Source: an uncultured Pseudomonadales bacterium (lineage in GTDB: Bacteria > Patescibacteriota > Microgenomatia > UBA1400 > UBA12028). Taken from it: a stretch of DNA of 33,288 bases. The stretch lies in the NCBI GenBank assembly GCA_964638785.1, contig CAZWYZ010000002.1:5022-38309 (forward strand). Reading direction: 5' to 3'. Made by a program: the position numbers and the translations under genes. Below are positions 1-9,977 of the stretch, piece by piece. The notes under the pieces are model-generated. The model was given only the letters and a program-made list of their open reading frames with translations, searched no databases and was not told where the DNA came from. The stretch's first letter is position 1. Every line of letters starts with the position of its first letter.

Positions 1-2
1 AC

Positions 3-260
3 GTGTCATTCCGCGAGTTTTCGGTTTTCTTTCATGATGAGTTAAAGACGTTTTGGTCTGAAGTTACTTCAATTCCTCTCACTCAGTTCAATAAATCATA
101 CAGAAAAACAAACACTGGTAAGACGAAAAAAGCAGGTTATCAGGGCTGTGCCAGCATTTATTACTATGATGCAAAAATTGCGAAAGAGCTAACAGCCCTA
201 TATAATGCACTTTACCCCTGGGCATTGAAAGTCAATCTCCGTCCAGGACCAAATACATAG
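3..260 (+). CDS. C-terminal fragment of a LAGLIDADG-type homing-endonuclease-like protein (5' end outside the window)
   Basis: The ORF runs in from the window edge. The segment FWSEVTSIPLTQFNKSYRKT...GCASIYYYDAKIAKEL resembles LAGLIDADG_3-type repeats as I recall them; no search was done. The stop TAG at 258-260 overlaps the first 2 nt of the tRNA. Confidence 0.35.
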   Translation: MSFREFSVFFHDELKTFWSEVTSIPLTQFNKSYRKTNTGKTKKAGYQGCASIYYYDAKIAKELTALYNALYPWALKVNLRPGPNT

Positions 261-329
261 GGCTATGATGAAATGGTATCATTCCGGTCTCCAAAACCGT
301 ATTTCCAGGTTCGAATCCTGGTAGCCCTG
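259..329 (+). tRNA. trnW: tRNA-Trp (anticodon CCA)
   Basis: Manual cloverleaf. Acceptor AGGGCTA (259-265) pairs with TAGCCCT (322-328). D stem ATGA/TCAT. Anticodon stem CGGT/ACCG with loop CTCCAAA (anticodon 291-293). T arm CCAGG-TTCGAAT-CCTGG (305-321). Discriminator G329. CCA is not encoded. Confidence 0.85.
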
Positions 330-346
330 CAAACAGGCTCGAACCT
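307..346 (+). repeat. Junction J0: array-proximal att-like site made of the tRNA T-loop/acceptor 3' half plus the right box
   Basis: AGGTTCGA (307-314) is the exact reverse complement of TCGAACCT (339-346). An inner CCTG (317-320) pairs with CAGG (334-337). The layout matches the cassette junction repeats. Confidence 0.6.
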
Positions 347-420
347 AAATAATAGATTGCAATATCAATCTAATAGTGGTCGATTTTTGTCTCTATTCCT
401 TCCGTCCTTCTTTTGTTTGA

Positions 421-426
421 TATACT
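421..426 (+). promoter_or_regulatory. -10 hexamer TATACT, 6 nt upstream of ATG 433 (leaderless layout)
   Basis: tTGaTATACT followed by cttgtc and ATG; no SD. Confidence 0.5.
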
Positions 427-432
427 CTTGTC

Positions 433-876
433 ATGGCAAAGGAACAAATGGAAGACAAGTATCAAAGCGGAACATTAAAGGAATATAAACACTGGGTTCT
501 GACTGTTAGCTTCAGACAGACTACGTTAGGAAGTTACATTATCCTAGCCAAGCGACCGATGGAACGCATTACAGAACTATCTGATGATGAGCTTCTAGAA
601 TTACGGCTAGCCATGTCAGAAATGGAAAGAGTTCTACTACAAGCTGATGGTTTCAAGCCTGATCGGTTTAACTATCTTCAACTGGGAAACTCGCTTCATC
701 AACTTCATTTTCATGGTGTTCCAAGATATGCATCGCCTAGATTTTATGCTGAAAAGGAATGGATAGATCACCGATACGGAACAACCCCTCTTATTGTCTC
801 GAAGAGCGAAGAGTCTGAAGAGAGTCTTGTACGTCAAATACGAGATGCATTGAAGCCATTATTTGAAAGTATATAG
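433..876 (+). CDS. HIT (histidine triad) family hydrolase, cassette 1
   Basis: Contains the histidine-triad-like motif LHQLHFHGVPRY and has a HIT-sized fold length (147 aa). The stop TAG is the first 3 nt of TAGGTTC in J1. Confidence 0.7.
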   Translation: MAKEQMEDKYQSGTLKEYKHWVLTVSFRQTTLGSYIILAKRPMERITELSDDELLELRLAMSEMERVLLQADGFKPDRFNYLQLGNSLHQLHFHGVPRYASPRFYAEKEWIDHRYGTTPLIVSKSEESEESLVRQIRDALKPLFESI

Positions 877-919
877 GTTCTGACATCCTCCATGAGTCCC
901 TGCAAATAGGCTCGAACCT
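875..919 (+). repeat. Junction J1 (left box plus right box, short type)
   Basis: Sequence AGGTTCTGACATCCTCCATGAGTCCCTGCAAATAGGCTCGAACCT. Its 3' two thirds are nearly identical to the tRNA 3' end and flank (CCCTGCAAACAGGCTCGAACCT). Confidence 0.8.
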
Positions 920-992
920 TAATAATAGGTGAGCAAATCAATCCAAAATTAGTGATTTTTTACTCCATTCCTTCCGTCCTTGATTAGTTTGA

Positions 993-998
993 TATACT
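993..998 (+). promoter_or_regulatory. -10 hexamer TATACT, 7 nt upstream of ATG 1006
   Basis: tTGaTATACT followed by ttgaact and ATG; no SD. Confidence 0.5.
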
Positions 999-1005
999 TT
1001 GAACT

Positions 1006-1344
1006 ATGCGTTCAGAACTATTTCCACGTCAGCTTGACTCCGAAGGAAATCTCGGCCGGGCGAAAGATATATGTGTCGTTGCAGCAGAAAGAACATTTAA
1101 AGAGAGGTGGGGTAAAGATACGAATCCCATGATTGTGCAAATGATTATCTTTGGAGCACTTCAGGATCACTGGTATTATCGTTCTGATCAGTGGGTTGAT
1201 CAGCCATATTCTTTGCCTGCGATGTTTACACAGCCATATAGGGGAGACCCACAGTTTGCGTATCCGTGGTTGTATGGAGAAGGCACATTTCAAAGGGATG
1301 ATGAGTTAACAGAATTAATGGTTGAAGAACTCTCAACCAAATAG
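1006..1344 (+). CDS. hypothetical protein, cassette 2 (paralog of 7560..7904)
   Basis: Shares the blocks ERWGKDTNPMIVQM, DHWYYRSDQW and QPY with the 7560 ORF. The stop TAG lies in J2. Confidence 0.65.
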   Translation: MRSELFPRQLDSEGNLGRAKDICVVAAERTFKERWGKDTNPMIVQMIIFGALQDHWYYRSDQWVDQPYSLPAMFTQPYRGDPQFAYPWLYGEGTFQRDDELTELMVEELSTK

Positions 1345-1450
1345 GTTCTGACGTCCTCTACTAAGCCCTGCTTCACTGTTTCTGACACATTTCCCCTCAA
1401 GAAAAACAGGTTCGAGCCTTGGATAGACACAAGGAATTTGTTCGAACCTA
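1343..1450 (+). repeat. Junction J2 (108-nt composite type: left box, spacer, second T-arm-like module)
   Basis: A diverged left box AGGTTCTGACGTCCTCTACTAAGCCCTGC is followed by AGGTTCGAGCCTTGGATAGACACAAGGAATTTGTTCGAACCTA, which is identical to the same block in J6. Confidence 0.8.
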
Positions 1451-1453
1451 AGC

Positions 1454-1459
1454 TATAAT
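1454..1459 (+). promoter_or_regulatory. -10 hexamer TATAAT, 6 nt upstream of ATG 1466
   Basis: TATAAT followed by gagcga and ATG; no SD. Confidence 0.5.
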
Positions 1460-1465
1460 GAGCGA

Positions 1466-2203
1466 ATGGAAAAGGAAAAACTTTCCCCAGTAGAACAAAC
1501 GGCAATTCGTGCATCTGAAATCTTCAAAAAACTTCCTTTGGCATACAAGAGACTGATAATGTTTGCAGACTGGCTTATGGTGCTGGATGGAATGAAAGCA
1601 GCGACTGATTACGCATTCTTGGGTAACACTTGGGATGAGAATGAGTTCCAAATCTTCAAGCAAACGCTAGAGTCAGCAGGGATTAAAGTGTCGGATGTTC
1701 ACACGCGATATTTCAAAGATAATATTCCGTTTAGGAGTGGACACATCTATAACCCGCGAGCATTGGCAGCTCAGACTGCTCACTCTGAGATGATCCCTCC
1801 ATTCGATGTATCATCAACTTTTGATGAATATGAGCATATGCTAAAAGAAAGTGGAGTGCCCGACGGGATAATATACGGGAAACTCTATTCATTTCCCGAG
1901 TCTGCTATCAAAGATTATCTGAAAGGTAGTGGACATGAACTCACGGATACTAATAGAGTTGGTCTAGGGCAGGGCAATGAAAGTTACTGGGCATACTCAC
2001 CTTTACAGGATGATGTCATTGAGAGAGAGAAGGCTAGTGAGATTTTTCTTTCTAAAATTGAGCAGAATCCATTAATGAAACGAATTTATGAAAGTGAGGA
2101 GCTGAAAGCTTCTGACAAAGAATGGAGCCGAAGACTATCTAAGCTTACAAAACAAACTCTAATTCAGCGACTCGGAACAAAGCTTCGTTCACTAAGAAGA
2201 TAG
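1466..2203 (+). CDS. hypothetical protein (245 aa), cassette 3
   Basis: Long ORF with the promoter-ATG layout; no family recognised. The stop TAG lies in J3. Confidence 0.6.
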   Translation: MEKEKLSPVEQTAIRASEIFKKLPLAYKRLIMFADWLMVLDGMKAATDYAFLGNTWDENEFQIFKQTLESAGIKVSDVHTRYFKDNIPFRSGHIYNPRALAAQTAHSEMIPPFDVSSTFDEYEHMLKESGVPDGIIYGKLYSFPESAIKDYLKGSGHELTDTNRVGLGQGNESYWAYSPLQDDVIEREKASEIFLSKIEQNPLMKRIYESEELKASDKEWSRRLSKLTKQTLIQRLGTKLRSLRR

Positions 2204-2284
2204 GTTCGAACATCCTCCACGAGTCCCTGCAAATGGATTTTCCTCGAGTGAAAAAATAGGGGCACAAGGAAGGCTCGAACCTAA
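2202..2284 (+). repeat. Junction J3 (83-nt type with central CTCGAG)
   Basis: Perfect left box AGGTTCGAACATCCTCCACGAGTCCCTGCAAAT and right box GGCTCGAACCTAA. It differs from J4 at about 5 of 83 positions by eye. Confidence 0.85.
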
Positions 2285-2286
2285 TA

Positions 2287-2292
2287 TATACT
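2287..2292 (+). promoter_or_regulatory. -10 hexamer TATACT, 6 nt upstream of ATG 2299
   Basis: TATACT followed by ttagga and ATG. Confidence 0.5.
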
Positions 2293-2298
2293 TTAGGA

Positions 2299-2817
2299 AT
2301 GCTTACCCCTGCTCATATTGCTTCTTCATATCTCCTAAGTCAGGTTCCTTGTTTGTTCGGTCAACCTCTCAGTTCTTACGATGTCACCACTGTGATTTTA
2401 GCAGGGAACGTGCTTGATTTGGATTTCCTACTTGGATACTTGCGAAATAAAAAAGGTGACGATCACCATAATTTCGTCACACATACACCGTTATTTGTTT
2501 TTGTTGTTTGGACTATTTGTTTGCTACTCTTTCCACACATATTCAGTTCACTTTTATGGATGTTGATATTTGTTTCTGCAATGATACATCTGGGTCTAGA
2601 TGATATTGGATACTGGTTTTGCAGGTTCGAGTGGCAAAAGATTAGCAAGTATCCTCAAATAAACTGGCTATATCCTTTCGCTCCGTTTCAATCTAGAAAA
2701 TATCACGGGACAAATCGGTCATTGCTCAAAGACTATTTCCAAAAGGCAAGAGTGAATGTGTTTCTGGAGGTGACTTTGATATTTTCAGCAATTGTAGTAT
2801 TTTTGACTATTAGGTAG
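2299..2817 (+). CDS. membrane-bound metal-dependent hydrolase (YdjM/DUF457-like), cassette 4
   Basis: Several hydrophobic segments. His/Asp motifs occur in the YdjM order: N-terminal H, DLD, HHNFVTHT, HLGLDD. The stop TAG lies in J4. Confidence 0.5.
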   Translation: MLTPAHIASSYLLSQVPCLFGQPLSSYDVTTVILAGNVLDLDFLLGYLRNKKGDDHHNFVTHTPLFVFVVWTICLLLFPHIFSSLLWMLIFVSAMIHLGLDDIGYWFCRFEWQKISKYPQINWLYPFAPFQSRKYHGTNRSLLKDYFQKARVNVFLEVTLIFSAIVVFLTIR

Positions 2818-2898
2818 GTTCGAACATCCTCCACGAGTCCCTGCAAATGGATTTACCTCGAGTAGAAAAATAGGGACTCAAGGAAGGCTCGAACCTAA
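2816..2898 (+). repeat. Junction J4 (83-nt type)
   Basis: Perfect left and right boxes. The internal arms GAGTCCCT and AGGGACTC are complementary, and the centre is CCTCGAG. Confidence 0.85.
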
Positions 2899-2914
2899 AC
2901 CAAGATGCAATTGA

Positions 2915-2920
2915 TATAAT
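2915..2920 (+). promoter_or_regulatory. -10 hexamer TATAAT, 6 nt upstream of ATG 2927
   Basis: tTGaTATAAT followed by ctcccg and ATG. Confidence 0.5.
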
Positions 2921-2926
2921 CTCCCG

Positions 2927-3595
2927 ATGATTAGAAGTGAAAAGTGGCTCCCCGCAACAATTGCTCGCTTCACTGAGAATTATTTATTTAGTGGAAGTTA
3001 CCAGTGTACATTCGATGAAACAAAAGAGAATCAAATGATTCTGATCCCAGGGATGGGCGCATCAGTGTCTCAACTCTTCCGACTTGTTGATTCTTTACGA
3101 GCAGATGCTGATTTCCAATCCTACGGAATTACAGCCGTACAGCTGGGTTTGAGTCTGGGTGCTTTTAAAGATACCTTATCAAATCTCGAATCCAAACTGG
3201 AATCAAAGGTTTTTTCAAATACAGCAATAAAGCAGGTTGTTCTTTATGGGCATAGTCATGGTGGGCGTTTTGCTTGCCAACTCGCAACAGATTTGCAGAC
3301 AAATCATCCAGGCATAAGTTTGAAAGTTATCACTGGTGGAACTCCAGTAGTAGAAAGGCCTTCATCCTTTAAAAATTGGCTACTTTCACTTTCCTTTAGA
3401 GAATGGCCATCTATCGAGCAACCTCAGATAAACGAATATTATTCACTCTATTCCAACTCTGATGAAATTGTTGATGAAGATGATGCCAGAAGAGGATCAA
3501 AAGCAACTTTAGTAGAACTACAAGACTTTTCTCATAGTGATTTTATAAACCCAGAGAAAATAATGCCTGTATTAAAAGATCTTTGCATCAAATAG
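2927..3595 (+). CDS. alpha/beta-hydrolase fold esterase/lipase-like protein, cassette 5
   Basis: Contains a nucleophile elbow GHSHGG (GxSxG) in a 222-aa protein. The stop TAG lies in J5. Confidence 0.6.
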   Translation: MIRSEKWLPATIARFTENYLFSGSYQCTFDETKENQMILIPGMGASVSQLFRLVDSLRADADFQSYGITAVQLGLSLGAFKDTLSNLESKLESKVFSNTAIKQVVLYGHSHGGRFACQLATDLQTNHPGISLKVITGGTPVVERPSSFKNWLLSLSFREWPSIEQPQINEYYSLYSNSDEIVDEDDARRGSKATLVELQDFSHSDFINPEKIMPVLKDLCIK

Positions 3596-3652
3596 GTTCG
3601 AACATCCTCCACGAGTCCCCGCAAATTTTAATAGATTGGTATATCAATCTAA
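3594..3652 (+). repeat. Junction J5 (left box plus AGATTG-N6-CAATCT mini-hairpin; no right box)
   Basis: Left box AGGTTCGAACATCCTCCACGAGTCCCCGCAAAT is followed by AATAGATTGGTATATCAATCTAA. The same hairpin follows the tRNA at 354-371. Confidence 0.8.
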
Positions 3653-3706
3653 AAATACATCTAAGTCACACACATCCCTTCTGCACCTCTTTTTTCTACT
3701 TAGCGT

Positions 3707-3712
3707 TATAAT
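3707..3712 (+). promoter_or_regulatory. -10 hexamer TATAAT, 6 nt upstream of ATG 3719
   Basis: TATAAT followed by tgctga and ATG. Confidence 0.5.
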
Positions 3713-3718
3713 TGCTGA

Positions 3719-4237
3719 ATGCCAAAAGAAATCTACATATTACGTCACGCTGAGAAAGACGATCTAGGAACATTAACTGATAAAGGGAGACAACAAGCCA
3801 CTGAGCTTCGAGACAGACTTCCACAGTTTTCAAACGTAATTTCTTCTGAATCCAAAAGAGCCCAGGAAACTGCAACTCTTGTGACTGGCAAAGAACCAAA
3901 AGTAGATCCAAGAGCAGGGTTTTATATGGCTCACCCTGAAAAGAGTGATGAGTTAAACAGGATAGCTAAAGAAAAAGGAATACCATTTCTAGAAGCGGTT
4001 GTATTGCTAAACGATTCAGAAGTTCTAGCTGGTATAGATGATAAAGCAGGTCAGTTAAATGACTTGGTAAAAGAATTACTTGAAACTTTACCAGATGGAG
4101 CAAAAGCTATTATTATTTCTCATGACTTAAGTATCAGCCCAGCGATGCAGAAAAGGGGAGTTCCTCTTGAATCAATCCCATTCTTAAGCGGATACATCAT
4201 TGATGAAGAGGGGAAGATCTCCACTTTCACCCCATAG
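3719..4237 (+). CDS. histidine phosphatase (phosphoglycerate-mutase-like) family protein, cassette 6
   Basis: N-terminal IYILRHAEK (RHG-type motif) and a later ISHD histidine. It has its own TAG, 27 nt upstream of J6. Confidence 0.7.
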   Translation: MPKEIYILRHAEKDDLGTLTDKGRQQATELRDRLPQFSNVISSESKRAQETATLVTGKEPKVDPRAGFYMAHPEKSDELNRIAKEKGIPFLEAVVLLNDSEVLAGIDDKAGQLNDLVKELLETLPDGAKAIIISHDLSISPAMQKRGVPLESIPFLSGYIIDEEGKISTFTP

Positions 4238-4264
4238 TAAGAGAAGTATTTTTCATTGTTAAAT

Positions 4265-4372
4265 AGGTTCGAACATCCTCCACGAGTCCCTGCTTCACAG
4301 TTTTTGACTTTTCTTCCCTCAAGCAAAAGAGGTTCGAGCCTTGGATAGACACAAGGAATTTGTTCGAACCTA
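4265..4372 (+). repeat. Junction J6 (108-nt composite type, sister of J2)
   Basis: The left box is near consensus (AGGTTCGAACATCCTCCACGAGTCCCTGC, then TTCAC in place of AAAT). It is followed by the 43-nt block AGGTTCGAGCCTTGGATAGACACAAGGAATTTGTTCGAACCTA, identical to J2. Confidence 0.85.
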
Positions 4373-4375
4373 CGG

Positions 4376-4381
4376 TATAAT
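4376..4381 (+). promoter_or_regulatory. -10 hexamer TATAAT, 6 nt upstream of ATG 4388
   Basis: CTACGGTATAAT followed by ctatac and ATG. Confidence 0.5.
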
Positions 4382-4387
4382 CTATAC

Positions 4388-4939
4388 ATGAGCACAAGCT
4401 TTTTGTTTATCCTTGAAAAAAACTTATCCTCCATACAAAAAGAGCAAATCGGGAAATTCAATGAAGAATCATTTGGAGATGTTTCACTGGAAGAAAAAGA
4501 AGAGAACTTCATTGCAAAACCATTTGCAAGACTTATCGCCTATCTAGATGGGATTCCAGTTGGGACACTGCAACTATTCAAACGAGAGAACAGGTTTGCT
4601 AGTAAGAGTTTTATGCTTGGTGGTATCGGAGGTGTTTGCGTGACAGAAAAGCATCGGAAGAAGGGAATAGGCAAGGAGCTTATACAGAAAGCATTAGAAA
4701 TACTTCGCAATGAGCACTGTGATGTAGCTTGTTTGAATGTGGATTCAAAGAAACTTGCATTTAAGCTCTATGAAAAGGTTGGTTTTGTACTTATGGATAG
4801 AGACGCTTCATTTGAAAACAGTAAAGGAGAAATCATTTACGAGCCCGGTACGATGTTTGCCCCTGTACTTTCCCAGAGCATTTTTGCTCTTATTATGCAA
4901 AGTAGTGAGACTTTTCACTACGGTGTTGGGTATTGGTAA
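4388..4939 (+). CDS. GNAT family N-acetyltransferase, cassette 7
   Basis: Acetyl-CoA motif A: VCVTEKHRKKGIGKELIQKA. The C-terminal YEKVGF is typical of GNATs. Confidence 0.75.
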   Translation: MSTSFLFILEKNLSSIQKEQIGKFNEESFGDVSLEEKEENFIAKPFARLIAYLDGIPVGTLQLFKRENRFASKSFMLGGIGGVCVTEKHRKKGIGKELIQKALEILRNEHCDVACLNVDSKKLAFKLYEKVGFVLMDRDASFENSKGEIIYEPGTMFAPVLSQSIFALIMQSSETFHYGVGYW

Positions 4940-4942
4940 GAT

Positions 4943-4975
4943 AGGTTCGAACATCTTCCACGAATCCATGCAAAT
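4943..4975 (+). repeat. Junction J7 (left box only, 4 substitutions)
   Basis: Sequence AGGTTCGAACATCTTCCACGAATCCATGCAAAT, 3 nt after the TAA stop. Confidence 0.75.
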
Positions 4976-5010
4976 AAGCTTCACTCTAATACTTTGTTTT
5001 GATTCTACGG

Positions 5011-5016
5011 TATAAT
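5011..5016 (+). promoter_or_regulatory. -10 hexamer TATAAT, 6 nt upstream of ATG 5023
   Basis: CTACGGTATAAT followed by tttgca and ATG. The 12-nt block is the same as upstream of 4388. Confidence 0.5.
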
Positions 5017-5022
5017 TTTGCA

Positions 5023-5619
5023 ATGAATAAAGACTCTGACCAACGACTGCTTCACGATGTTGATTCTCAGGCTGAAAAAGAATTAGAGCAAATACGGAAA
5101 GCTGTACCTGAATCTGAAATTCTTAAGATTGGCGAAAATCCAGAACAGTACACTATAAAAGTCTCCTTGCCACACATGTGTAGTATTACTGGAATTCTGG
5201 TCTACCCTACTTCAATCTCCAATGAGAGTAATTTGTATGTCAATATGTTCAATTTACCTGAAGAATTTCAGCAAAAAGGAATAGGGCAAAGACTTTTACG
5301 GTCGCTTGTCGTTTGTGCAAAAACATATGGAGCGACTACGCTTAGCGGAAACGTAACAAGTAAGTCAGCTCTCAAAACTCGTGCTAGAGTCTTTGGACAA
5401 GATAAACTTACTTATTACTCTCGGACTGGATTAGGGAAAAAGGGCGATGAAATAGATAGATCCTATGATGAAATACTCACAAAGCTACCAAATTCGATCA
5501 TTGAAGATGGTGAAGAGGTTGATTTCAGTTGCTTTGTAGATGTGGATTTAAATGGAGTAGATACCCTAGGCTGGGAATTGCCTATTCCTAAAAAAGATGA
5601 TGAGGAGAAGCAGACGTAA
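5023..5619 (+). CDS. GNAT-like protein (weak), cassette 8
   Basis: Start moved from the TTG at 4999 to the ATG at 5023 to fit the -10 layout. QQKGIGQRLLRSL resembles GNAT motif A; otherwise unrecognised. Confidence 0.4.
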   Translation: MNKDSDQRLLHDVDSQAEKELEQIRKAVPESEILKIGENPEQYTIKVSLPHMCSITGILVYPTSISNESNLYVNMFNLPEEFQQKGIGQRLLRSLVVCAKTYGATTLSGNVTSKSALKTRARVFGQDKLTYYSRTGLGKKGDEIDRSYDEILTKLPNSIIEDGEEVDFSCFVDVDLNGVDTLGWELPIPKKDDEEKQT

Positions 5620-5623
5620 GCAA

Positions 5624-5659
5624 GGAGGTTCAAACATCCTCCACGAGTCTTTGCATCAG
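5624..5659 (+). repeat. Junction J8 (left box variant with a full T-arm-like stem)
   Basis: GGAGG-TTCAAACAT-CCTCC is followed by ACGAGTCTTTGCATCAG. The 5-bp stem is 5624-5628 with 5638-5642. Confidence 0.7.
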
Positions 5660-5688
5660 TTTTCATTTGCAATGCTAGTTGAGAGAAT

Positions 5689-6261
5689 CTAGAGTATTCC
5701 TTTTTCTGTCAGATCCTCAAGTAAATGAGGATACTTCAACTCTATATAAGCTTTTGCTTTATTGTGCGCAGGTTTCTGCTCAAGTCCCAGTTCAATTGAA
5801 AAGCGACGTATGTCTTCTTTTGCAGTTTCTAAATTTGTATCTGCAGAATATTCGATTTCACAGACGCTATACCCAAAATCGGTGATGTCTACATCAACCG
5901 TGAATGAATCTCTTTGAAATGTATATCGAGTTGTTTTCATTTGAATGGAAGGTAAGAGATTTGATTTAATCCAGTTGGACAAGACTGCATCCTTTGGCAC
6001 ATCAAGAAAAGCCTTTATTTCTTCTTCAGTTGTAAGTTCTAAATATACCTCCAACTGCTTGCCTCGTTCTTCAGGCTTTCTATATTTTAGTTCAAACGAA
6101 CCATTTCGCTCGCGAACCCAAGTGTCATTCCTAAGATACCTGAAATCTATTGTGTCAAAGTATGTTTCCACTAGTTCTTTTACTTTTACCTGTAGAAGTT
6201 TTTGCTGAAGCGAGGGGAGAAGCATCTGAGAAAAAGGGAATTGCTGTTCAACTTCTATCAT
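5689..6261 (-). CDS. CYTH domain protein (thiamine-triphosphatase-like), cassette 9, inverted orientation
   Basis: MIEVEQQF (EXEXK-type start), YFDT, DVDITDFGYSVCEIEY and KAKAYIELKYPHLL parallel the mammalian ThTPase/CYTH motifs. Start set at M49 of the tracked ORF so that it does not read through J9. Confidence 0.75.
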   Translation of the reverse strand: MIEVEQQFPFSQMLLPSLQQKLLQVKVKELVETYFDTIDFRYLRNDTWVRERNGSFELKYRKPEERGKQLEVYLELTTEEEIKAFLDVPKDAVLSNWIKSNLLPSIQMKTTRYTFQRDSFTVDVDITDFGYSVCEIEYSADTNLETAKEDIRRFSIELGLEQKPAHNKAKAYIELKYPHLLEDLTEKGIL

Positions 6262-6267
6262 ATCGAT

Positions 6268-6273
6268 AGTATA
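6268..6273 (-). promoter_or_regulatory. -10 hexamer TATACT (minus strand), 6 nt upstream of ATG 6261
   Basis: The minus strand reads TATACT, atcgat, ATG. Confidence 0.5.
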
Positions 6274-6289
6274 GCAATCTTCAGGAAGC

Positions 6290-6342
6290 AGGTTGGAACA
6301 TCCTTCACGAGTCCTCGTATCAACTTTTAAGCTCGAAAAATA
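6290..6342 (+). repeat. Junction J9 (diverged left box plus degenerate right box)
   Basis: AGGTTGGAACATCCTTCACGAGTCCTCG is followed by AAGCTCGAAAAATA. It is in plus orientation although the preceding gene is on the minus strand. Confidence 0.65.
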
Positions 6343-6374
6343 CTTCGAAAATGGCTTTTTATAGCGACTGACAT

Positions 6375-6380
6375 TACAAT
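6375..6380 (+). promoter_or_regulatory. -10 hexamer TACAAT, 7 nt upstream of ATG 6388
   Basis: TACAAT followed by tgtctgt and ATG. Confidence 0.45.
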
Positions 6381-6387
6381 TGTCTGT

Positions 6388-7317
6388 ATGGATAAAGACA
6401 TGCAAGGTGTGGAATTTCCTTCAGAAGCACATCGAAATCTCTCCGATCATTTAGATGAAATAGAAGTTCATGAAGAGAATCTTCAAGAAGTACAAGAATT
6501 GACTGATCTTTTTTTTGACCAGTTAATTGAAGTTAGTTACACTGAGTCAAACACAAGAAGTGGGACGATTGCCTGGGATCAAGATAAATTGGATATGGTT
6601 GAGTATCTAGCGAATATAGCTGGTGAAGTTTGGGAAATAGGTGGGCCAACTGAAGAATATACCATGATTGATCAGGCTCGAATTAAGAACACGTTTAGAG
6701 TAGTGAATATTCCACCAGCACCTGGACTCAATACATATAGAGAAATTCCAACACAGGTTTCTGTCCTTGCTGATGGTTCTCAATTGCCCATTGGCGATAA
6801 GATTTTAGCAGGTCTACTAATAAGTAATTTCAGCGGAGAGAGAAATGCACTAATACAAGAGGTGTCTAGAGTCTTAAAAACAGATGGCCTCCTTGTTTGG
6901 CAAGGTGGGAAGCCAGAGGATTTAGCCATGATGTTGACGAAGGGATTTGTCCTACAGTCTTTCAAGCTGACTATAGTCGATCAAAGTGAAAAGCCAGACT
7001 CAAAAAAAACAGGTCAACAGTTGGTATGGTCTGGAGTTTTTAAAAAGACAGACAAAGAAATTTCCAGTTCAGACGTTGTCCCACTGTTCGTAAACATTAT
7101 AAAGAATTCAAAAAAGGAAGAAATCGCTTTCGAAATTCCTAACTTTGATCCCAGTACGGGACGATCTCTAACAACTGATGCTGAAAGGGTAGAGGTAATT
7201 AAAAATTTGTATTGGACCATTGGGGTGAAAGTCCCTGATGAAGATGCAGATGGTAAGTTGCTTACTCCAGAAGAAAAGATGAAGTATTTAAAGGAAAAGT
7301 ATTCCACATCTACATAA
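6388..7317 (+). CDS. hypothetical protein with a possible class I methyltransferase-like core, cassette 10
   Basis: VWEIGGP ... LPIGDKILAGLLISN ... LIQEVSRVLKTDGLLVWQGG resembles SAM-MTase motifs I, II and post-III; the match is weak. Confidence 0.4.
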   Translation: MDKDMQGVEFPSEAHRNLSDHLDEIEVHEENLQEVQELTDLFFDQLIEVSYTESNTRSGTIAWDQDKLDMVEYLANIAGEVWEIGGPTEEYTMIDQARIKNTFRVVNIPPAPGLNTYREIPTQVSVLADGSQLPIGDKILAGLLISNFSGERNALIQEVSRVLKTDGLLVWQGGKPEDLAMMLTKGFVLQSFKLTIVDQSEKPDSKKTGQQLVWSGVFKKTDKEISSSDVVPLFVNIIKNSKKEEIAFEIPNFDPSTGRSLTTDAERVEVIKNLYWTIGVKVPDEDADGKLLTPEEKMKYLKEKYSTST

Positions 7318-7332
7318 TTTAATCATTGCTGA

Positions 7333-7515
7333 GTGGAGGGGGAGGTTCCCGCTGCTGTATTGTTTATGGTTGTCAAAGATGGAGCAGAGATTCGCGTCAT
7401 CCCTGAGTGGGAAGTAAGCTACTGGCAAGCTTTCTATAGCGCCCCAGATACAGTTACATCAGTAGCTTTAAAAGATTTTTATAAAAAAGCGAACACTCAA
7501 AAAAACAAGTTCTAA
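7333..7515 (+). CDS. small hypothetical ORF (60 aa, GTG start); doubtful
   Basis: Only ORF-level evidence. It is preceded by a GGAGGG-rich stretch and has no -10/ATG layout. Its stop TAA lies inside the J10 remnant. Confidence 0.2.
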   Translation: MEGEVPAAVLFMVVKDGAEIRVIPEWEVSYWQAFYSAPDTVTSVALKDFYKKANTQKNKF

Positions 7516-7538
7516 TTTCTGCTCCTGAGCCCAGAAAC
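7509..7538 (+). repeat. Junction J10: degenerate copy of the genuine tRNA-Trp 3' end (tRNA-type, not cassette-type)
   Basis: GTTCTAAT-ttctgc-TCCTGAGCCCAGAAAC compares with the tRNA GTTCGAATCCTGGTAGCCCTGCAAAC. It matches the tRNA version (TCCTG..AGCCC..AAAC) better than the cassette consensus. Confidence 0.5.
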
Positions 7539-7547
7539 CACTTTTGA

Positions 7548-7553
7548 TAAAAT
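7548..7553 (+). promoter_or_regulatory. -10 hexamer TAAAAT with TG extension, 6 nt upstream of ATG 7560
   Basis: tTGaTAAAAT followed by atccaa and ATG. Confidence 0.45.
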
Positions 7554-7559
7554 ATCCAA

Positions 7560-7904
7560 ATGTTTAATGAACAAAGACCTCGATTGATTGTTGATGGACA
7601 CCTAGAAGAAATACTTGGGACGTGTTCCGATGAAGCAGAGAAAACTTTTAGGAATAGATGGGGTCAAGATACAAATCCTCGTATTGTTCAGATGGTTCAT
7701 CAAGGACAGCCCATCGATCACTGGTACTACAGATCTGATCAGTGGATTTCGCAGCCATATGCTTGGCCTGCAATCTTTCTCCAACCGTACGTGGGTTCCA
7801 CCACTGAAATTGGAGCGATTAAATATGGTGAGAGGAGTTACATTTATGGCGATAATGAAAAATTGTCAACAGAAATTCTAATAGAAGAATTAAGATCAAA
7901 GTAG
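7560..7904 (+). CDS. hypothetical protein, cassette 11 (paralog of 1006..1344)
   Basis: Contains the blocks NRWGQDTNPRIVQM, DHWYYRSDQW and QPY. The stop TAG lies in J11. Confidence 0.65.
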   Translation: MFNEQRPRLIVDGHLEEILGTCSDEAEKTFRNRWGQDTNPRIVQMVHQGQPIDHWYYRSDQWISQPYAWPAIFLQPYVGSTTEIGAIKYGERSYIYGDNEKLSTEILIEELRSK

Positions 7905-7935
7905 GAAAGCACATCTTTCACGAGTCCCTGTAAAT
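7903..7935 (+). repeat. Junction J11 (left box, 5' third degenerate)
   Basis: AGGAAAGCACATCTTTCACGAGTCCCTGTAAAT, followed by GGATCATCCACGAGTGG, which resembles the J3/J4 centre. Confidence 0.65.
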
Positions 7936-7986
7936 GGATCATCCACGAGTGGTAAAAGAGAACAGAATGAAAATACGAGTCTACGA

Positions 7987-7992
7987 TATAAT
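7987..7992 (+). promoter_or_regulatory. -10 hexamer TATAAT, 6 nt upstream of ATG 7999
   Basis: TATAAT followed by cagtgg and ATG. Confidence 0.5.
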
Positions 7993-7998
7993 CAGTGG

Positions 7999-8688
7999 AT
8001 GGAAATAAATACATCTCTTCTATCAGATCCGTTCTATAAGAAGTCAGAATCAGAAAATAACGGTTTAGCGCTCATTGATAACTCAGTCCTGTCGATCTAT
8101 TGCCCAGGTATCAGTACAGGAGGGTTTGCAGAGATTAGTATGGCACTTGCTGAGCCACGAAGGCGAATTGTGGCAACAACCTTAGATGAAAAAGGGATTT
8201 TAGAAACGCAGAAATTGTTGGAAAAGTATACGGTTCAGTCACAGATTACTCTAAAAATTGAGGATGTGTCAAAACCACTCCCATATGAGAACGAGTACTT
8301 CGATTTCATCTACGCTCGTTTAGTCTTACACTATTTAGCAAATACTGAGTTACAAAATGCTCTTCAGGAACTGTACAGAATTTTAAAAACAGGGAATACG
8401 CTATTTGTTGTTGTTCGATCATTTGATTGGGAAAGCGAAGTCCCCGAAAGCACTCATGATGTTGAAACAGGAATGACCAGTTACCCGGAATATGATGATG
8501 CGGGGAAGGTACGTAAGTATGTTTCTCGTAATTTGCACTCGGAAGAAACTATAAAGGATCATTTGGTTAAAGCAGGATTCAAAATAAAATCACTTAGAAC
8601 ATTTGAAGAGACAATCTACGGAGGTTACCTTCGCATCAGACCAAATGAGAAGCCATCATCTCTCATTGAGGTGGTAGCTGAAAAATAG
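7999..8688 (+). CDS. class I SAM-dependent methyltransferase, cassette 12
   Basis: Rossmann-type motifs: IYCPGISTGG, an acidic residue after beta2, FDFIYARLVLHYL, and LQELYRILKTGNTLFVVV. The stop TAG lies in J12. Confidence 0.75.
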   Translation: MEINTSLLSDPFYKKSESENNGLALIDNSVLSIYCPGISTGGFAEISMALAEPRRRIVATTLDEKGILETQKLLEKYTVQSQITLKIEDVSKPLPYENEYFDFIYARLVLHYLANTELQNALQELYRILKTGNTLFVVVRSFDWESEVPESTHDVETGMTSYPEYDDAGKVRKYVSRNLHSEETIKDHLVKAGFKIKSLRTFEETIYGGYLRIRPNEKPSSLIEVVAEK

Positions 8689-8715
8689 ATCGTGACAACC
8701 CTCACCAGCACCTGC
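8687..8715 (+). repeat. Junction J12 (most degenerate left box)
   Basis: AGATCGTGACAACCCTCACCAGCACCTGC keeps the spacing and about half the consensus positions. It is followed by AGTTTGATATACTTTGAA, which is identical to the block upstream of cassette 2. Confidence 0.45.
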
Positions 8716-8733
8716 TTATTCAAATCAGTTTGA

Positions 8734-8739
8734 TATACT
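8734..8739 (+). promoter_or_regulatory. -10 hexamer TATACT, 6 nt upstream of ATG 8746
   Basis: tTGaTATACT followed by ttgaaa and ATG. Confidence 0.5.
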
Positions 8740-8745
8740 TTGAAA

Positions 8746-9327
8746 ATGCCATCAATCTATCTTCTTCGACACTGTGAATACGAAAACCCACGAAATATTT
8801 TGCCGGGACGATTACCACTAGAGTTATCTGAATCCGGAAAAATTCGAGCAGGACAACTTGCCAGTACTTTTGAAGGAAAGAATATTTCGCGTATCTACAG
8901 CAGTGCTGTCGAGCGATGCAAACAGACAGCAGAGATAGTATCAAAAGGAACTATCCCTGTGCTATACGATCAAAGACTATTGGAAACACTTTCTGCATAC
9001 CAGGGATTCTGGGGGGAAAATAAAACGGAGGATGGATTTCATTTCTTTATTCATCGATCAGAATTGGGGGGAGAAAGTTTGGTGGATATTCAGGTCAGGA
9101 TGAAATCTTTTTGGGAGGAAATTACTCAAGAACTAAAAGATAATATCATTATCTGCAGTCATGGTGATCCATTGCAGGTATTGTATTCAACAATTCATGG
9201 GATGAACTTGGTCGATGATAATGACATTGAAGAAAATATTCCAGGTTGGCTTGAAAAGGGTGAGTTTTTTGAAATCTCCTGGCATGAAGGAAAAATTGTT
9301 TCGACCTCTTCGCCTAAAACGGCATAA
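8746..9327 (+). CDS. histidine phosphatase family protein, cassette 13
   Basis: IYLLRHCE (RHG-type motif) and ICSHGDPL. Start moved from the TTG at 8740 to the ATG at 8746 to fit the -10 layout. Confidence 0.7.
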   Translation: MPSIYLLRHCEYENPRNILPGRLPLELSESGKIRAGQLASTFEGKNISRIYSSAVERCKQTAEIVSKGTIPVLYDQRLLETLSAYQGFWGENKTEDGFHFFIHRSELGGESLVDIQVRMKSFWEEITQELKDNIIICSHGDPLQVLYSTIHGMNLVDDNDIEENIPGWLEKGEFFEISWHEGKIVSTSSPKTA

Positions 9328-9347
9328 AACCGACTACATACACGAAT

Positions 9348-9971
9348 CTACTGCTCTGGTTTTTCATCAGTCTCAGCATCCTGAATATCCAAATGTTTCC
9401 GACAAAAGTCTAGATATACTTTCTTATTTTCTCCCGGCAGAATGCGAAGGTCATAGCTGCTTTGGGAGACGAGCACGATTGCATTTTGTTTTAGACCTTC
9501 GATCAAGGCATCTACACGCACTGTATAGACAACAGGATCTCTTCTCGGTGTTAGTTTCAGGAAGTTAATAACCTCGGGTCTTGCAAGGGATCCATTCGCC
9601 CCTCCATCGAGCACGAAGGTCGATAATTCATGAGGTGAATAGTCTGAACTAATGCTCATACCCATATTTTCTTGCCAGGTATTCCGTGTTCCACCTCTAT
9701 ACCATGTTAAATCTGGTTTGAGTTCGTTGAGCTTTGTTAAGATATCTATCTGGCCATTTTCGAGATGCCGCATCTCACTCACCACGCCGTCAATGTGATA
9801 ATGTCGCTGTATTGCGTAGAGCAGCCATTTTTCCGCTCCATTCTTCTGTGCGTAGGAAAGTGCATACTCTTTCAACTGATCTACGAGGTTTTCATACTCT
9901 TCCTCTGAAACTTCGAACCTGCTTGGTGTAGATTCCTGCCTGCTCATGTCTGTCGTTTGATTCTCCGGCAT
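9348..9971 (-). CDS. hypothetical protein (207 aa), possibly the last, inverted cassette
   Basis: Long ORF, low GC like the array, with the leaderless -10 layout. No family recognised. Confidence 0.55.
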   Translation of the reverse strand: MPENQTTDMSRQESTPSRFEVSEEEYENLVDQLKEYALSYAQKNGAEKWLLYAIQRHYHIDGVVSEMRHLENGQIDILTKLNELKPDLTWYRGGTRNTWQENMGMSISSDYSPHELSTFVLDGGANGSLARPEVINFLKLTPRRDPVVYTVRVDALIEGLKQNAIVLVSQSSYDLRILPGENKKVYLDFCRKHLDIQDAETDEKPEQ

Positions 9972-9977
9972 AGTTAC

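Follow-up and report, generated by a model that had tools for sequence, protein, structure and literature searches.

Structure of the array

In the 33-kb window (the whole stretch of DNA analyzed, 33,288 nt), a tRNA-Trp gene heads an array of about a dozen cassettes, most of them containing a single gene (Table 1). A 30-nt box, AGGTTCGAACATCCTCCACGAGTCCCTGCA, is present in ten copies plus a degenerate one, all on the plus strand and between positions 874 and 8716. The copies were located by a mismatch scan plus a sequence model; the ten start at 875, 1343, 2202, 2816, 3594, 4265, 4943, 5626, 6290 and 7903, with E-values from 3e-12 to 6e-7, and the degenerate one at 8686 was recognized in the alignment. 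By the same scan and model the box is absent from the remaining ~24 kb of the window, and no other sequence of the window scored better than E ~0.3, except for reverse-strand matches to the right arms described below. An independent assembly, a Logan contig (L007, run ERR8482628), is 100% identical to the window from 82 to 1437, so the locus is not an assembly artefact. Circular forms, empty sites and strain polymorphisms were not observed; the only second assembly is the identical L007.

The GC content of the cassettes is 0.37 to 0.43, against 0.41 to 0.48 elsewhere in the window. Their cargo comprises HIT, GNAT, methyltransferase, phosphatase and hydrolase genes, to which the array of another genome (L002) adds toxin-antitoxin pairs, and it is of the sort typical for cassette arrays. 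No recombinase or integrase gene was found in the window, in the 7.5 kb upstream of the tRNA in a second genome (L001) or in 8 kb of L002, and there are no integrase fragments among the ORFs.

Table 1. Features of the array (J, junction; c and g, ORFs).
Feature	Position	Strand	Remarks
tRNA-Trp (CCA)	259..330	+	ARAGORN; Rfam tRNA 60.8 bits; array anchor
J0 right part, type A leader	331..432	+	follows tRNA, precedes c1
J0 right arm GCTCGAACCTA	337-347	+	
J0 palindrome TAGATTG-N6-CAATCTA	353-372	+	
J0 block ATTCCTTCCGTCC	within 331..432	+	in type A leader
J0 extended -10 TGATATACT	418-426	+	6 nt ahead of c1 ATG
c1, HIT-family protein	433..876	+	stop is box TAG 874-876
J1	874..1005	+	left box 874-904 (TAG + box); right arm 910-920; type A leader; -10 993-998
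c2, unknown family, invariant HWYYRS motif	1006..1344	+	stop is box TAG
J2, type B	1342..1465	+	variant left box 1342-1372; right arm 1440-1450; -10 1454-1459
J2 internal T-arm-like AGGTTCGAGCCT	1408-1419	+	
c3, function not assigned	1466..2203	+	stop is box TAG
J3, type C	2201..2298	+	left box 2201-2231; right arm 2273-2283; -10 2287-2292
c4, YdjM-like membrane protein	2299..2817	+	stop is box TAG
J4, type C	2815..2926	+	left box 2815-2845; right arm 2887-2897; -10 2915-2920
c5, alpha/beta hydrolase or lipase-like	2927..3595	+	stop is box TAG
J5	3593..3718	+	left box 3593-3623; no right arm; type A palindrome 3632-3651; -10 3707-3712
c6, histidine phosphatase family	3719..4237	+	stop TAG 4235-4237, 27 nt before box TAG (4264)
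J6, type B	4264..4387	+	left box 4264-4294; right arm 4362-4372; -10 4376-4381
c7, GNAT acetyltransferase	4388..4939	+	TAA 4937-4939, 2 nt before box TAG (4942, out of frame)
J7, truncated type B	4942..5022	+	left box 4942-4972; -10 5011-5016
J7 degenerate right arm GATTCTA	5001-5007	+	
c8, weak acetyltransferase PHROG match	5023..5619	+	TAA 5617-5619, 5 nt before box
J8	5625..5691	+	left box 5625-5655, begins GAGG
J8 degenerate right arm GAATCTA	5685-5691	+	its CTA is the TAG stop of reverse ORF c9
c9, CYTH domain, reversed	5689..6261	-	own -10 at 6268-6273
J9	6289..6387	+	left box 6289-6319, begins CAGG; -10 TACAAT 6375-6380
Unit without internal boxes (c10, doubtful small ORF, c12)	6388..7904	+	
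c10	6388-7317	+	in box-free unit
Doubtful small ORF	7333-7515	+	in box-free unit
c12, c2 paralogue (47% identity)	7560-7904	+	in box-free unit; stop is box TAG
J12, truncated type C	7902..7998	+	left box 7902-7932; arm remnant GAGTCTA 7977-7983; -10 7987-7992
c13, SAM-dependent methyltransferase	7999..8688	+	stop is TAG of degenerate box
J13	8686..8745	+	strongly degenerate left box 8686-8716; type A promoter end AGTTTGATATACTTTGAA; -10 8734-8739
c14, histidine phosphatase family	8746..9327	+	last clear cassette ORF
Possible decayed distal cassette	9344..9975	-	weak evidence
g15	9348-9971	-	stops on CTA of arm-like CGAATCTA (9343-9350); weak evidence
Type B right-part relic	9956-9975		in possible decayed distal cassette

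In J0, the 3' part of tRNA-Trp, AGGTTCGAATCCTGGTAGCCCTGCA, stands where the left box would be, and it matches the box consensus at 24 of 30 aligned bases with two 2-nt gaps (hand alignment). Judging from this alignment, the box is a diverged copy of the tRNA-Trp 3' end, i.e., a tRNA 3'-end mimic; its two indels relative to the resident tRNA 3' end make it unlike the classical tRNA att repeats. Both the tRNA-Trp start of the array and this mimicry were overlooked in the preliminary description of the locus, and they change the most likely nature of the structure.

In six junctions a right arm, GYTCGAACCTA, pairs with the left box; the resulting hairpins are imperfect, and each half of the palindrome TAGGTTCGAACCTA forms one of their ends. 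The length of these palindromes is 45, 81-84 or 107-111 nt, and the hairpins of J0, J4 and J6 have z-scores of -3.6 to -5.4. The J0 hairpin, to which the tRNA T-arm contributes, has -11.5 kcal/mol (z -5.4), and the best of the set is that of J4, with DNA folds of -15.2 kcal/mol on the plus and -17.4 on the minus strand (z -3.9 and -5.2). Half of the junctions lack the right arm and have the left box only. From J3 to J12 the box score drops steadily with distance, from 43.3 to 27.2 bits, a gradient that needs J1 and J2 (variant box) to be left out, since with both included rho is -0.32 and not significant. The last box is hardly recognizable, and right arms are missing distally.

Leaders and composite junctions

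Shared sequence upstream of unrelated genes, as reported in the preliminary description, was recovered. The spacers ahead of c1 and c2 are 77% identical between 325-388 and 898-961 and 87% identical between 382-426 and 954-998 (83% overall, across ~100 nt); AGTTTGATATACTTTGAA is identical ahead of c2 (ATG 1006) and of the ORF at 8746, and CTACGGTATAAT ahead of c7 and c8. The type A leader, roughly 100 nt long, stands before three unrelated ORFs, J3 and J4 are 93% identical to each other, and J6 is about 85-88% identical to J2.

For the promoter supposed to be shared by these spacers, a -10 hexamer 6-7 nt before the ATG was confirmed, but no full two-hexamer promoter is enriched, a generic sigma-70 scan (-35 plus -10) returning 21 sites against 21.5 expected. 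The motif TAnnnT lies 6-7 nt ahead of the ATG, without a Shine-Dalgarno sequence, in 13 of 14 cassette ORFs and in 4 of 22 other genes of the window (Fisher P = 1.5e-5), a placement that suggests a leaderless style of transcription. In J2, J3, J6, J7 and J12 the -10 begins exactly 3 nt past the arm, which puts the ATG 15 nt beyond the module in these five junctions. The -10 located 6 nt before the ATG is also found in those 4 ordinary genes, however, and this promoter style is thus the host's rather than an invention of the repeat.

Nor is the junction a single element apart from the genes, as had been proposed. It is composite: exactly behind CCCTGC, which is the tRNA 3' end, the universal left box passes into a leader of type A, B or C, and all three types diverge straight after these bases. 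Left-box variants and leader types assort independently, across genomes too: the J2 box, followed by a type B leader, is 28/29 identical by hand count to the box at 3485 of L002 (97% by BLAST over a 33-nt spanning segment), which is followed by type A, and the J6 box is 29/30 identical to those of J3 and J4 (hand count), yet its leader is of type B. This fits a box that would be the 3' end of the upstream cassette and a leader that, with its promoter, would be the 5' end of the downstream one. The stop and the promoter ascribed to the junction element are indeed built into the units, but they appear to travel with the cassettes.

The preliminary description ascribed stop, hairpin and promoter to the junction element. 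On this view the junction would be an autonomous adaptor, with ORFs swapped between fixed adaptors, e.g., by homologous recombination in the flanking modules. Modules of the same type do surround unrelated ORFs (J0/J1 around c1, J3/J4 around c4, J6/J7 around c7), the stop and the -10 lie at constant offsets from the module ends, and the recurrence of the type A leader points the same way. However, adjacent same-type pairs flanking one cassette are not above chance (3 observed against ~2 expected, by our own estimate), and the independent assortment of left boxes and right parts, with a sharp breakpoint, indicates that the module is not passed on as a whole. In addition, the leader of the c2 orthologue in another genome (L006), TTGATATACTTTG, is similar, and a remnant of the box is kept there, with no upstream module. 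We regard such an adaptor as very doubtful.

It is also quite improbable that the locus is an atypical true integron or a CALIN (an attC cluster lacking integrase), in which an IntI-type integrase encoded beyond the window would recombine the hairpin junctions as attC sites in folded single-strand form, crossing over at the right arm. The attC sites have an R box, an L box and a variable terminal structure (PMC2727003), and the junction palindromes, of differing lengths, resemble them in their conserved inverted ends and variable middle. Other points in favor are the single-ORF, co-oriented units, the toxin-antitoxin pairs of L002 and the inner 7-mers of J2 and J6 (TTCGAAC/GTTCGAA), which retain the AAC...GTT triplets. 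The ends, however, match RYYYAAC/GTTRRRY at 5 of 7 positions at best, four right arms have GCT where GTT is expected, and the mosaic breakpoint falls after CCCTGC rather than at the right arm. The anchor is a tRNA gene and not an attI beside intI, and no intI was found adjacent to the arrays of the window, L001 and L002. The cassettes also bear their own promoters, unlike integron cassettes, which typically have none (PMC5027507).

Stop codons and C-termini

As previously described, seven plus-strand ORFs (c1 to c5, c12 and c13) stop on the TAG that opens the box, and the remaining three that precede a box (c6, c7 and c8) stop 27, 2 and 5 nt upstream. If the frame were random, in-frame use of the TAG in at least 7 of 9 cases would have P <= 0.008; this is an upper bound, since an open frame all the way to the box is required as well. 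The TAG is intrinsic to the repeat: of 21 boxes taken from five genomes, 17 have the T ahead of AGG, among them boxes reached by no ORF, and the conserved A in the ...CCTA of the right arm is the mirror image of this T. TAG ends 9 of 14 cassette ORFs against 4 of 22 other genes of the window, and TGA none of the 14. Mirror-image donation of the stop to a reverse ORF is clear in L002 (4890-5633, minus strand), with weaker arm-like matches for c9 and g15 of the window.

Homologues were checked for extension past the TAG, and those of the c1 and c2 families end alike. The 11 c2 homologues end -1 to +8 aa relative to the c2 end, and 87 HIT representatives have a median C-terminal overhang of -1 aa, 67 of them being within +/-5 aa. 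Since these proteins end at the matching position, the genes were not truncated by the box.

Boxes in other genomes

The canonical box was found in only four contigs of the public collections. It is 29-30/30 identical in L001, L002 and L003, where the flanking genes are unrelated, and in the first two it adjoins tRNA-Trp although the tRNA sequences differ from that of the window; despite divergence of the tRNA-Trp genes and the proteins, the box is 100% identical between genomes. Weaker boxes are located downstream of tRNA-Trp in L013 (E 6e-7), L012 and L010, one isolated box remaining in each. Leader types A and C were found again in other genomes. No cassette is common to two arrays, the c2 family being the one partial case: its orthologue in L006 has a degenerate box only, and no box accompanies its homologues in L004 and L008.

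Extragenic palindromes (REP/RAYT-like) or non-autonomous transposable elements (MITE) in an ordinary gene cluster, inserted at TA and often inside stop codons, would account for the terminal inverted repeats TAGGTTCGAAC/GTTCGAACCTA, which are perfect and carry TA at either end, for the CCTAA at 4 of 6 right flanks, expected from TA duplication in a TAA stop, and for discrete modules 85-93% identical between unrelated genes. They would not account for a first copy that is the tRNA gene itself, for the common orientation relative to the tRNA of at least 16 boxes in three genomes, for the lack of boxes in the other 24 kb of the window or for the half of the junctions without a right arm, and no transposase or RAYT gene was found. 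We consider this origin highly improbable.

The array could also be the wreck of ordinary tRNA-integrating islands, comparable to the accretion of CIME or tycheposon type, in which larger elements with an integrase entered tRNA-Trp time and again and each shrank to a single gene, leaving the boxes as att repeats without a dedicated cassette system. Documented islands seeded by tRNAs contain decayed elements as well as scattered partial copies of the tRNA (tycheposon preprint 10.1101/2020.12.28.424599; CIME definition in PMC5704250), and the missing integrase, the distal decay of the boxes and the relatives with one isolated box (L010, L012, L013) agree with such a history. Still, random decay does not explain why 7 of 10 ORFs end exactly on the site, untruncated, or why the distance between right arm and -10 is constant at 3 nt. 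Nor does it explain that genomes share conserved right arms and leader types and that their boxes are 100% identical in spite of the diverged tRNA-Trp genes and proteins. The ORFs also include no remains of an integrase, and we regard the island wreck as unlikely.

Proposed origin of the array

We find it moderately probable that the locus arose by serial site-specific accretion of self-promoted, integrase-less cassettes at the tRNA-Trp 3' end; it looks like integron-style gene capture of a kind not described before. The array would run from ~259 to 9330, possibly to ~9975, small mobile cassettes having been inserted successively at that end. Each would have a 5' part, a type A, B or C leader that starts right after CCCTGC and usually holds the right arm and a -10 hexamer 6-7 nt before the ATG, a middle with one ORF (rarely two or three, rarely reversed), and a 3' part, the 30-nt left box TAGGTTCGAACATCCTCCACGAGTCCCTGC. 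Circularization of a cassette would join box to leader and form an imperfect hairpin or palindromic site with the halves of TAGGTTCGAACCTA as outer ends. A site-specific recombinase encoded elsewhere and acting in trans would then recombine this site with the tRNA-Trp 3' end, whose T-arm resembles the box; the core common to both sites is CCCTGCAAA. The tRNA would be kept intact and the array would grow from its proximal side, older cassettes being shifted to distal positions and their sites decaying there.

The site has TAG as its outermost bases on either strand, so that ORFs filling a cassette would end on it. The host probably transcribes many genes leaderless from a -10 near the ATG, so that ~15 nt between site and ATG would be enough for independent expression of a cassette. 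The hairpin may serve as a terminator or insulator between the units.

Anatomy of the array

Fourteen short ORFs (c1 to c14, numbered from the tRNA gene) lie between an intact tRNA-Trp gene and position ~9330, 13 of them on the plus strand, in units of about 0.5-0.8 kb that mostly hold a single gene. They encode a HIT protein (c1), a YdjM-like membrane protein, an alpha/beta hydrolase, a GNAT acetyltransferase, a methyltransferase, two histidine phosphatases, a CYTH protein (the reversed ORF) and two paralogues of one unknown family (c2 and c12), while several products are of unknown function. The cassettes have a GC content of 0.37-0.43 vs 0.41-0.48 for the other window genes. Beyond the array, the window holds ordinary chromosomal sequence, with DHODH, LDH, a copper cluster, glmS with its ribozyme, P-type ATPases and Fmt. 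A 1.3-kb contig assembled independently from run ERR8482628 is 100% identical to positions 82-1437, so the array structure is not an assembly artefact.

A left box of 30 nt, AGGTTCGAACATCCTCCACGAGTCCCTGCA, lies between the cassette ORFs. A mismatch scan found ten copies with 0-8 mismatches, all on the plus strand between 875 and 7932, and zero elsewhere in the 33 kb. A sequence-only model of the box, trained on 16 copies, recovered these ten at E = 3e-12 to 6e-7 and nothing comparable in the other 24 kb of the window; the alignment revealed an eleventh, badly degenerate box at 8686. The junctions are named J0 (the tRNA-Trp 3' end in box position, before c1), J1 (after c1) and so on to J13, and the leaders that follow the boxes are of types A, B and C (see table).

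Coordinates of the features described in the text and membership of the junction types (window positions unless a contig is named; L001, L002 and L009-L014 are comparison contigs from other uncultured genomes)
Feature	Position	Strand	Remarks
tRNA-Trp(CCA)	259-330	+	ARAGORN; Rfam tRNA 60.8 bits
ORF 5' of tRNA-Trp	3-260	+	85 aa, complete or C-terminal fragment
End of homologous ORF	L002 1-221
c2	1006-1344		Unknown family of ~112 aa
c12	7560-7904		Same family
Possible extension of the array	9344-9975
g15	9348-9971	-	Possible decayed distal cassette
Segment like a type B leader end	9956-9975
Type A junctions	J0, J1		Parts in J5, J13
Type B junctions	J2, J6		~88% identical; truncated copy J7
Type C junctions	J3, J4		93% identical; truncated copy J12
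Inverted repeat in type A leaders	353-372; 3632-3651; L002 ~3523-3545		TAGATTG-N6-CAATCTA
ATTCCTTCCGTCC block in type A leaders	395-410; 966-981
Reverse ORF ending on a right arm	L002 4890-5633	-
GIY-YIG gene	L001 71-322	-
GIY-YIG gene	L009 4572-4823
GIY-YIG gene	L010 1787-2038
GIY-YIG gene	L011 10001-10258
GIY-YIG gene	L012 2700-2951
GIY-YIG gene	L013 10001-10372
GIY-YIG gene	L014 868-1239
VKOR-DHODH fusion	13251-14750	-	VKOR, residues 9-129; DHODH, residues 204-495
glmS ribozyme	22594-22796		Rfam RF00234, 54 bits
glmS	22944-24695
P-type cation ATPase	25823-28556	-	Overlapping ORFs 26277-28556 and 25823-26329

The array may reach further than c14. The reverse ORF g15 has a -10 placed 6 nt ahead of its ATG, its stop is the CTA of CGAATCTA, and the segment 9956-9975 is 85% identical to the end of the type B leader preceding c8. 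On the other side of the array, the TAG of the ORF 5' of tRNA-Trp overlaps the first bases of the tRNA gene, and a homologous ORF ends at the same place in L002. The protein encoded by the window ORF had no match in Pfam (E up to 10), PHROGs or PDB; it may resemble LAGLIDADG-type proteins, an identity that we do not claim.

The box, the tRNA-Trp 3' end and the palindrome

The 3' part of tRNA-Trp (AGGTTCGAA-TCCTGG-TAGCCCTGCAAAC) can be aligned with the box with two 2-nt gaps, exact identity being limited to CCCTGCAAA and AGGTTCGAA. The locus thus has the border feature of tRNA-integrating islands, an intact tRNA gene and ten direct tRNA-3'-end-like boxes, with a likeness that is partial (24/30 positions). 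With Rfam at a permissive threshold over 1-9400, tRNA-Trp alone was found; none of the boxes was recognised as part of a tRNA. The right arm and leader after tRNA-Trp are the same as those after the first box, so that J0 consists of the tRNA end plus a cassette leader. If the two were joined by recombination, the crossover point would lie within CCCTGCAAA.

The right arm, GYTCGAACCTA, is found in six junctions (J0-J4 and J6), 5-75 nt past the box, and the left and right ends are the two halves of a 14-bp palindrome, TAGGTTCGAACCTA. In single-stranded form, the arm-bearing junctions adopt imperfect hairpin structures, 45, 81-84 or 107-111 nt long; the folds of J0, J4 and J6 beat shuffled controls (z from -3.6 to -5.4), those of J1, J2 and J3 being weaker.

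Short palindromes with TA-ended inverted repeats, located at gene ends and able to contribute promoters, are typical of MITEs such as Correia, which are dispersed genome-wide in both orientations. Inverted repeats are present here too, and a TA duplication would be indistinguishable from the palindrome itself. Nevertheless, a MITE or REP origin of the repeats is unlikely, since the copies in the window are uniformly oriented and restricted to this one locus, starting from a tRNA gene, and, unlike REP/BIME elements with their RAYT, they have zero copies in the 24 kb of ordinary window genes.

Two further details concern the type A leaders. They contain a perfect 7-bp inverted repeat, present in two genomes, whose 6-nt loop is variable; it may form a hairpin or be bound by a protein. 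Moreover, their block ATTCCTTCCGTCC matches 12 of 13 bases of the tRNA-Trp 3' end of L001 and L002 (GATTCCTTCCGCCCCTGC), and it may have been left behind by a second attachment site of the tRNA-Trp type.

Composite junctions

The preliminary description had reported sequence shared downstream of the repeats by unrelated genes, and we found the same: the segments after the tRNA and after c1 are ~83% identical over ~100 nt, AGTTTGATATACTTTGAA is identical ahead of c2 and ahead of the ORF at 8746, and CTACGGTATAAT is identical ahead of c7 and c8. The three leader types part from one another immediately after CCCTGC. The box of J2 (variant TTCTGACGTCCTCTACTAAGC) differs from that of J6 at 7/30 positions and both are followed by type B, while the J6 box has 29/30 identity to the boxes of type C junctions. 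The J2 variant has a 28/29 match in L002, where it stands before a type A leader. Types A and C are also present in L001 and L002 beside unrelated genes.

Halves that assort independently and are joined at the end of a tRNA gene are the product that a site-specific crossover at this point would be expected to leave. On this reading, the box would close the upstream cassette at its 3' end, while the leader, with its right arm and promoter, would open the downstream one at its 5' end. Duplication of whole modules, as suggested by junctions of the same type flanking single cassettes, was considered and rejected since their frequency is not above chance. A type C junction gave no BLAST match in plasmids or phages.

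Stop codons and C-termini

Seven cassette ORFs (ends at 876, 1344, 2203, 2817, 3595, 7904 and 8688) stop, as originally proposed, on a TAG whose AG opens the box, and the other three ORFs ahead of a box stop 2-27 nt before it. Of the 9 TAG-bearing boxes, 7 are used in frame, and chance would give 7 or more with P <= 0.008, even at a generous 1/3 for each. TAG is the stop codon of 9/14 cassettes vs 4/22 other window genes, and no cassette (0/14) uses TGA. The T preceding AGG is present in 17 of 21 boxes from five genomes, and as it is kept even in boxes that follow a reverse gene or no ORF, it belongs to the repeat. The TAG of the box follows from the palindrome, where it mirrors the conserved CCTA of the right arm. 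Accordingly placed stops exist on the other strand: in L002, the stop of a reverse ORF is the CTA of GAACCTA, and in the window GAATCTA supplies the stop of c9 (5689) and of g15 (9348), two weaker cases with a 6/9 to 8/9 match to the arm.

The stop shared with the repeat had been attributed to co-adaptation, as opposed to truncation of the genes by repeat insertion, and the homologues speak against truncation, since those of c1 and c2 do not consistently extend past the TAG. For c1, the median C-terminal overhang is -1 residue among 87 library representatives, counted as those aligning to within 11 residues of the c1 end, and 67/87 are within +/-5. Eleven c2 homologues end from 1 residue before to 8 residues after the end of c2, and its paralogue c12 also stops on a box TAG. 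Judged from these alignments, the box abuts the natural C-terminus and does not truncate the genes.

The c2 family has the invariant motifs HWYYRS...QP...Q.Y.G...YG and, besides its two copies in the array, is found outside any array in other uncultured genomes (L004, L006 and L008). In GCA_041742135.1, its gene is just upstream of dnaG and a sigma-70-family gene.

Expression signals

A TAnnnT hexamer ending 6-7 nt before the ATG, with no Shine-Dalgarno sequence, precedes 13/14 cassette ORFs vs 4/22 other genes (Fisher P = 1.5e-5). These hexamers are TATAAT, TATACT, TACAAT or TAAAAT; TGn stands ahead of five of them. The distance from the (C/T)CTA of the right arm to the start of the hexamer is exactly 3 nt in J2, J3, J6, J7 and J12, which puts the ATG 15 nt after the module. 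A generic -35/-10 sigma-70 scan showed no enrichment, so the "promoter block" of the preliminary description is a -10-only signal; a terminator scan showed no enrichment either. TAnnnT close to the ATG is the layout known for leaderless mRNAs in several bacterial phyla, and the cassette ORFs are probably expressed as such.

The same description regarded stop, hairpin and promoter as a plug-in unit. What holds is that stop and promoter stand at fixed offsets from the site; both appear to be carried by the cassettes, not by a separate junction element.

Several ordinary genes between 9348 and 33036 (g15, the GNAT gene at 13225, the VKOR-DHODH fusion and DUF1861) also have a TAnnnT 6-8 nt before the ATG, and LDH, HMA and GlmS have clear Shine-Dalgarno sequences. 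With both start styles in one window, the host seems to mix leaderless and leadered genes.

Recombinase genes and polarity of the array

Domain searches of every ORF in the 33-kb window revealed neither Phage_integrase nor any other recombinase domain, and no Y1 transposase domain. Recombinase genes were likewise not found in L001, where 7.5 kb upstream of the tRNA was covered, in L002 or in the other related arrays.

From J3 to J12, the box scores fall without exception (43.3, 42.9, 42.8, 41.5, 37.0, 34.7, 31.1 and 27.2 bits), until the last box is barely detectable, and the right arms, whole near the tRNA, become degenerate or disappear with distance from it. J1 and J2 have a distinct box variant with lower scores, and the trend is not significant once they are included. 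This decay is suggestive, and only suggestive, of cassettes that enter beside the tRNA and grow older with distance from it.

Related loci and carrier lineage

Exact-match scans, which miss diverged arrays, found the box in two genome contigs (L001 and L002) and one soil-metagenome contig, with 0 hits in viral contigs, plasmids and phages. In L001 and L002, the boxes adjoin a tRNA-Trp gene whose sequence differs from that of the window except for the final CCCTGC. L002 has at least 5 boxes in the same orientation, with a P450, a NUDIX protein, a BrnT/BrnA-like pair, an AAA/DUF4143 protein and several reverse ORFs as cargo. The first gene after the tRNA in L001 encodes a GIY-YIG nuclease and stops on the box TAG. 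Six synteny relatives found through this nuclease (L009-L014) have tRNA-Trp beside the GIY-YIG gene and at most one recognisable weak box, seen in L013 (E 6e-7), L012 and L010. Among the loci of c2 homologues, boxes are missing from L004 and L008, and L006 has a single degenerate one. When the cassette proteins were compared with all the comparison loci, no common cargo was found but the c2 family.

A small stand-alone GIY-YIG gene is thus directly beside tRNA-Trp in seven related loci (see table); the one in L010 takes its stop from the TAG of a box into which 20 nt have been inserted.

One of the synteny relatives is named "Actinobacteria bacterium RBG_13_35_12", and Patescibacteria names are given to other GIY-YIG homologues. 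The label of L001 and L002 is "uncultured Pseudomonadales bacterium", and their content is unlike that order: an LPXTG anchor, a GC content of 37-47%, leaderless-style starts and, in L001, a tRNA-Tyr/Thr...tRNA-Trp neighbourhood. This label may be wrong, and the record names point to more than one lineage for the carriers.

Comparison with known systems

Integrons are the best-studied platform for stockpiling single-gene cassettes, and the array is integron-like in its mostly single-ORF, co-oriented cassettes, in ORFs that fill the cassettes and abut the site, in separators that are variable-length imperfect palindromes with conserved inverted ends, and in a typical cargo that combines small accessory enzymes with toxin-antitoxin pairs; in both, the older sites, which are distal, have degenerated. 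On the other hand, no intI is seen beside the array in the window, L001 or L002. attC sites end in R'' (RYYYAAC) and R' (GTTRRRY) and fold into a hairpin that has an unpaired spacer, extrahelical bases and a variable terminal structure. The imperfect hairpins of the array have conserved inverted ends and a variable middle, and the two heptamers are unmatched: TTCGAAC/GTTCGAA agrees with them at 5/7 positions, and four right arms have GCT. Unlike integrons, the array is anchored on a tRNA gene whose 3' end is copied by the site, and the breakpoint seems to fall where the left arm ends on its inner side (after CCCTGC) instead of within the right arm. Finally, integron cassettes are promoterless and depend on a common Pc, whereas a predicted -10 of their own in nearly all cassette ORFs suggests that those described here are not.

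The pdif (Xer) modules of Acinetobacter plasmids are small, with one to three genes, and have short recombination sites and a recombinase encoded elsewhere. Their 28-bp XerC/XerD sites alternate in orientation, while the sites described here are tRNA-like, in one orientation, and chromosomal beside a tRNA gene.

Elements and islands that target tRNA genes share with the array the intact proximal tRNA, the direct tRNA-3'-end-like repeats delimiting successive units, and a model in which new units are added next to the tRNA and the distal ones decay. The locus could be a decayed island of this kind, built by accretion of large elements. CIMEs are units that keep attL and attR, lack integration and transfer genes, and stand in tandem at the 3' end of the target gene (PMC5704250); the box-bounded units without recombination genes fit this anatomy. 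CIMEs derive from a decayed ICE or IME and are mobilised in cis by the integrase of a related element; no parent element of the cassette units was found. The anatomy also recalls accretion of the tycheposon type at a tRNA gene, although the tycheposon islands of Prochlorococcus (10.1101/2020.12.28.424599) have seven tRNA/tmRNA targets without tRNA-Trp among them. Tycheposons bring a tyrosine recombinase of their own type and a replication module, and no recombinase, primase or helicase genes are present here. Against a decayed island of either type, the array is far more regular and compact than the decay of large elements would produce. Its units are single genes, not multi-kb elements; its repeat is not an exact tRNA copy, having two indels, and is paired with an inverted right arm into hairpins; and stop codon and promoter are at fixed offsets from the site. 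An element-encoded integrase next to the att site, typical of tRNA-integrating islands, was found neither in the window nor in the related loci; CIMEs lack integrases as well. If the locus were merely a decayed tRNA island, it would still be a tidy example of tRNA-gene accretion in an uncultured lineage.

By a modest margin of belief, we favour an accretion array anchored on tRNA-Trp, made of self-promoted, integrase-less cassettes that would be recombined by an enzyme encoded elsewhere. We are more doubtful about a further proposal, which we put forward tentatively: that this is a form of gene capture analogous to the integron and distinct from it, in a little-known uncultured lineage, with the tRNA gene acting as attI, a tRNA-mimic palindrome as site, a TAG on either strand, leaderless self-expression and a recombinase in trans. 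If true, it would be a second, mechanistically separate solution, meaning that cassette-style gene capture evolved more than once, and it would point to a new pair of recombinase and site. Its distinguishing marks would be the tRNA anchor, the tRNA-mimic site, a promoter per cassette and a site that itself contains the stop codon. The compact unit (site, 3 nt, -10, 6 nt, ATG ... TAG, site) would tie cassette design to leaderless translation, and it gives a definite example in which to study how ORFs are turned into cassettes, which is still an open question for integrons. A full-text literature search found no earlier description of such an array, which is weak evidence of novelty.

Other features of the window

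Outside the array, two overlapping ORFs together make up the P-type cation ATPase, the smaller carrying the Cation_ATPase_C domain. The split may reflect a frameshift, a pseudogene or an error in the sequence. A single ORF fuses VKOR to dihydroorotate dehydrogenase, and the glmS ribozyme is located upstream of its gene.
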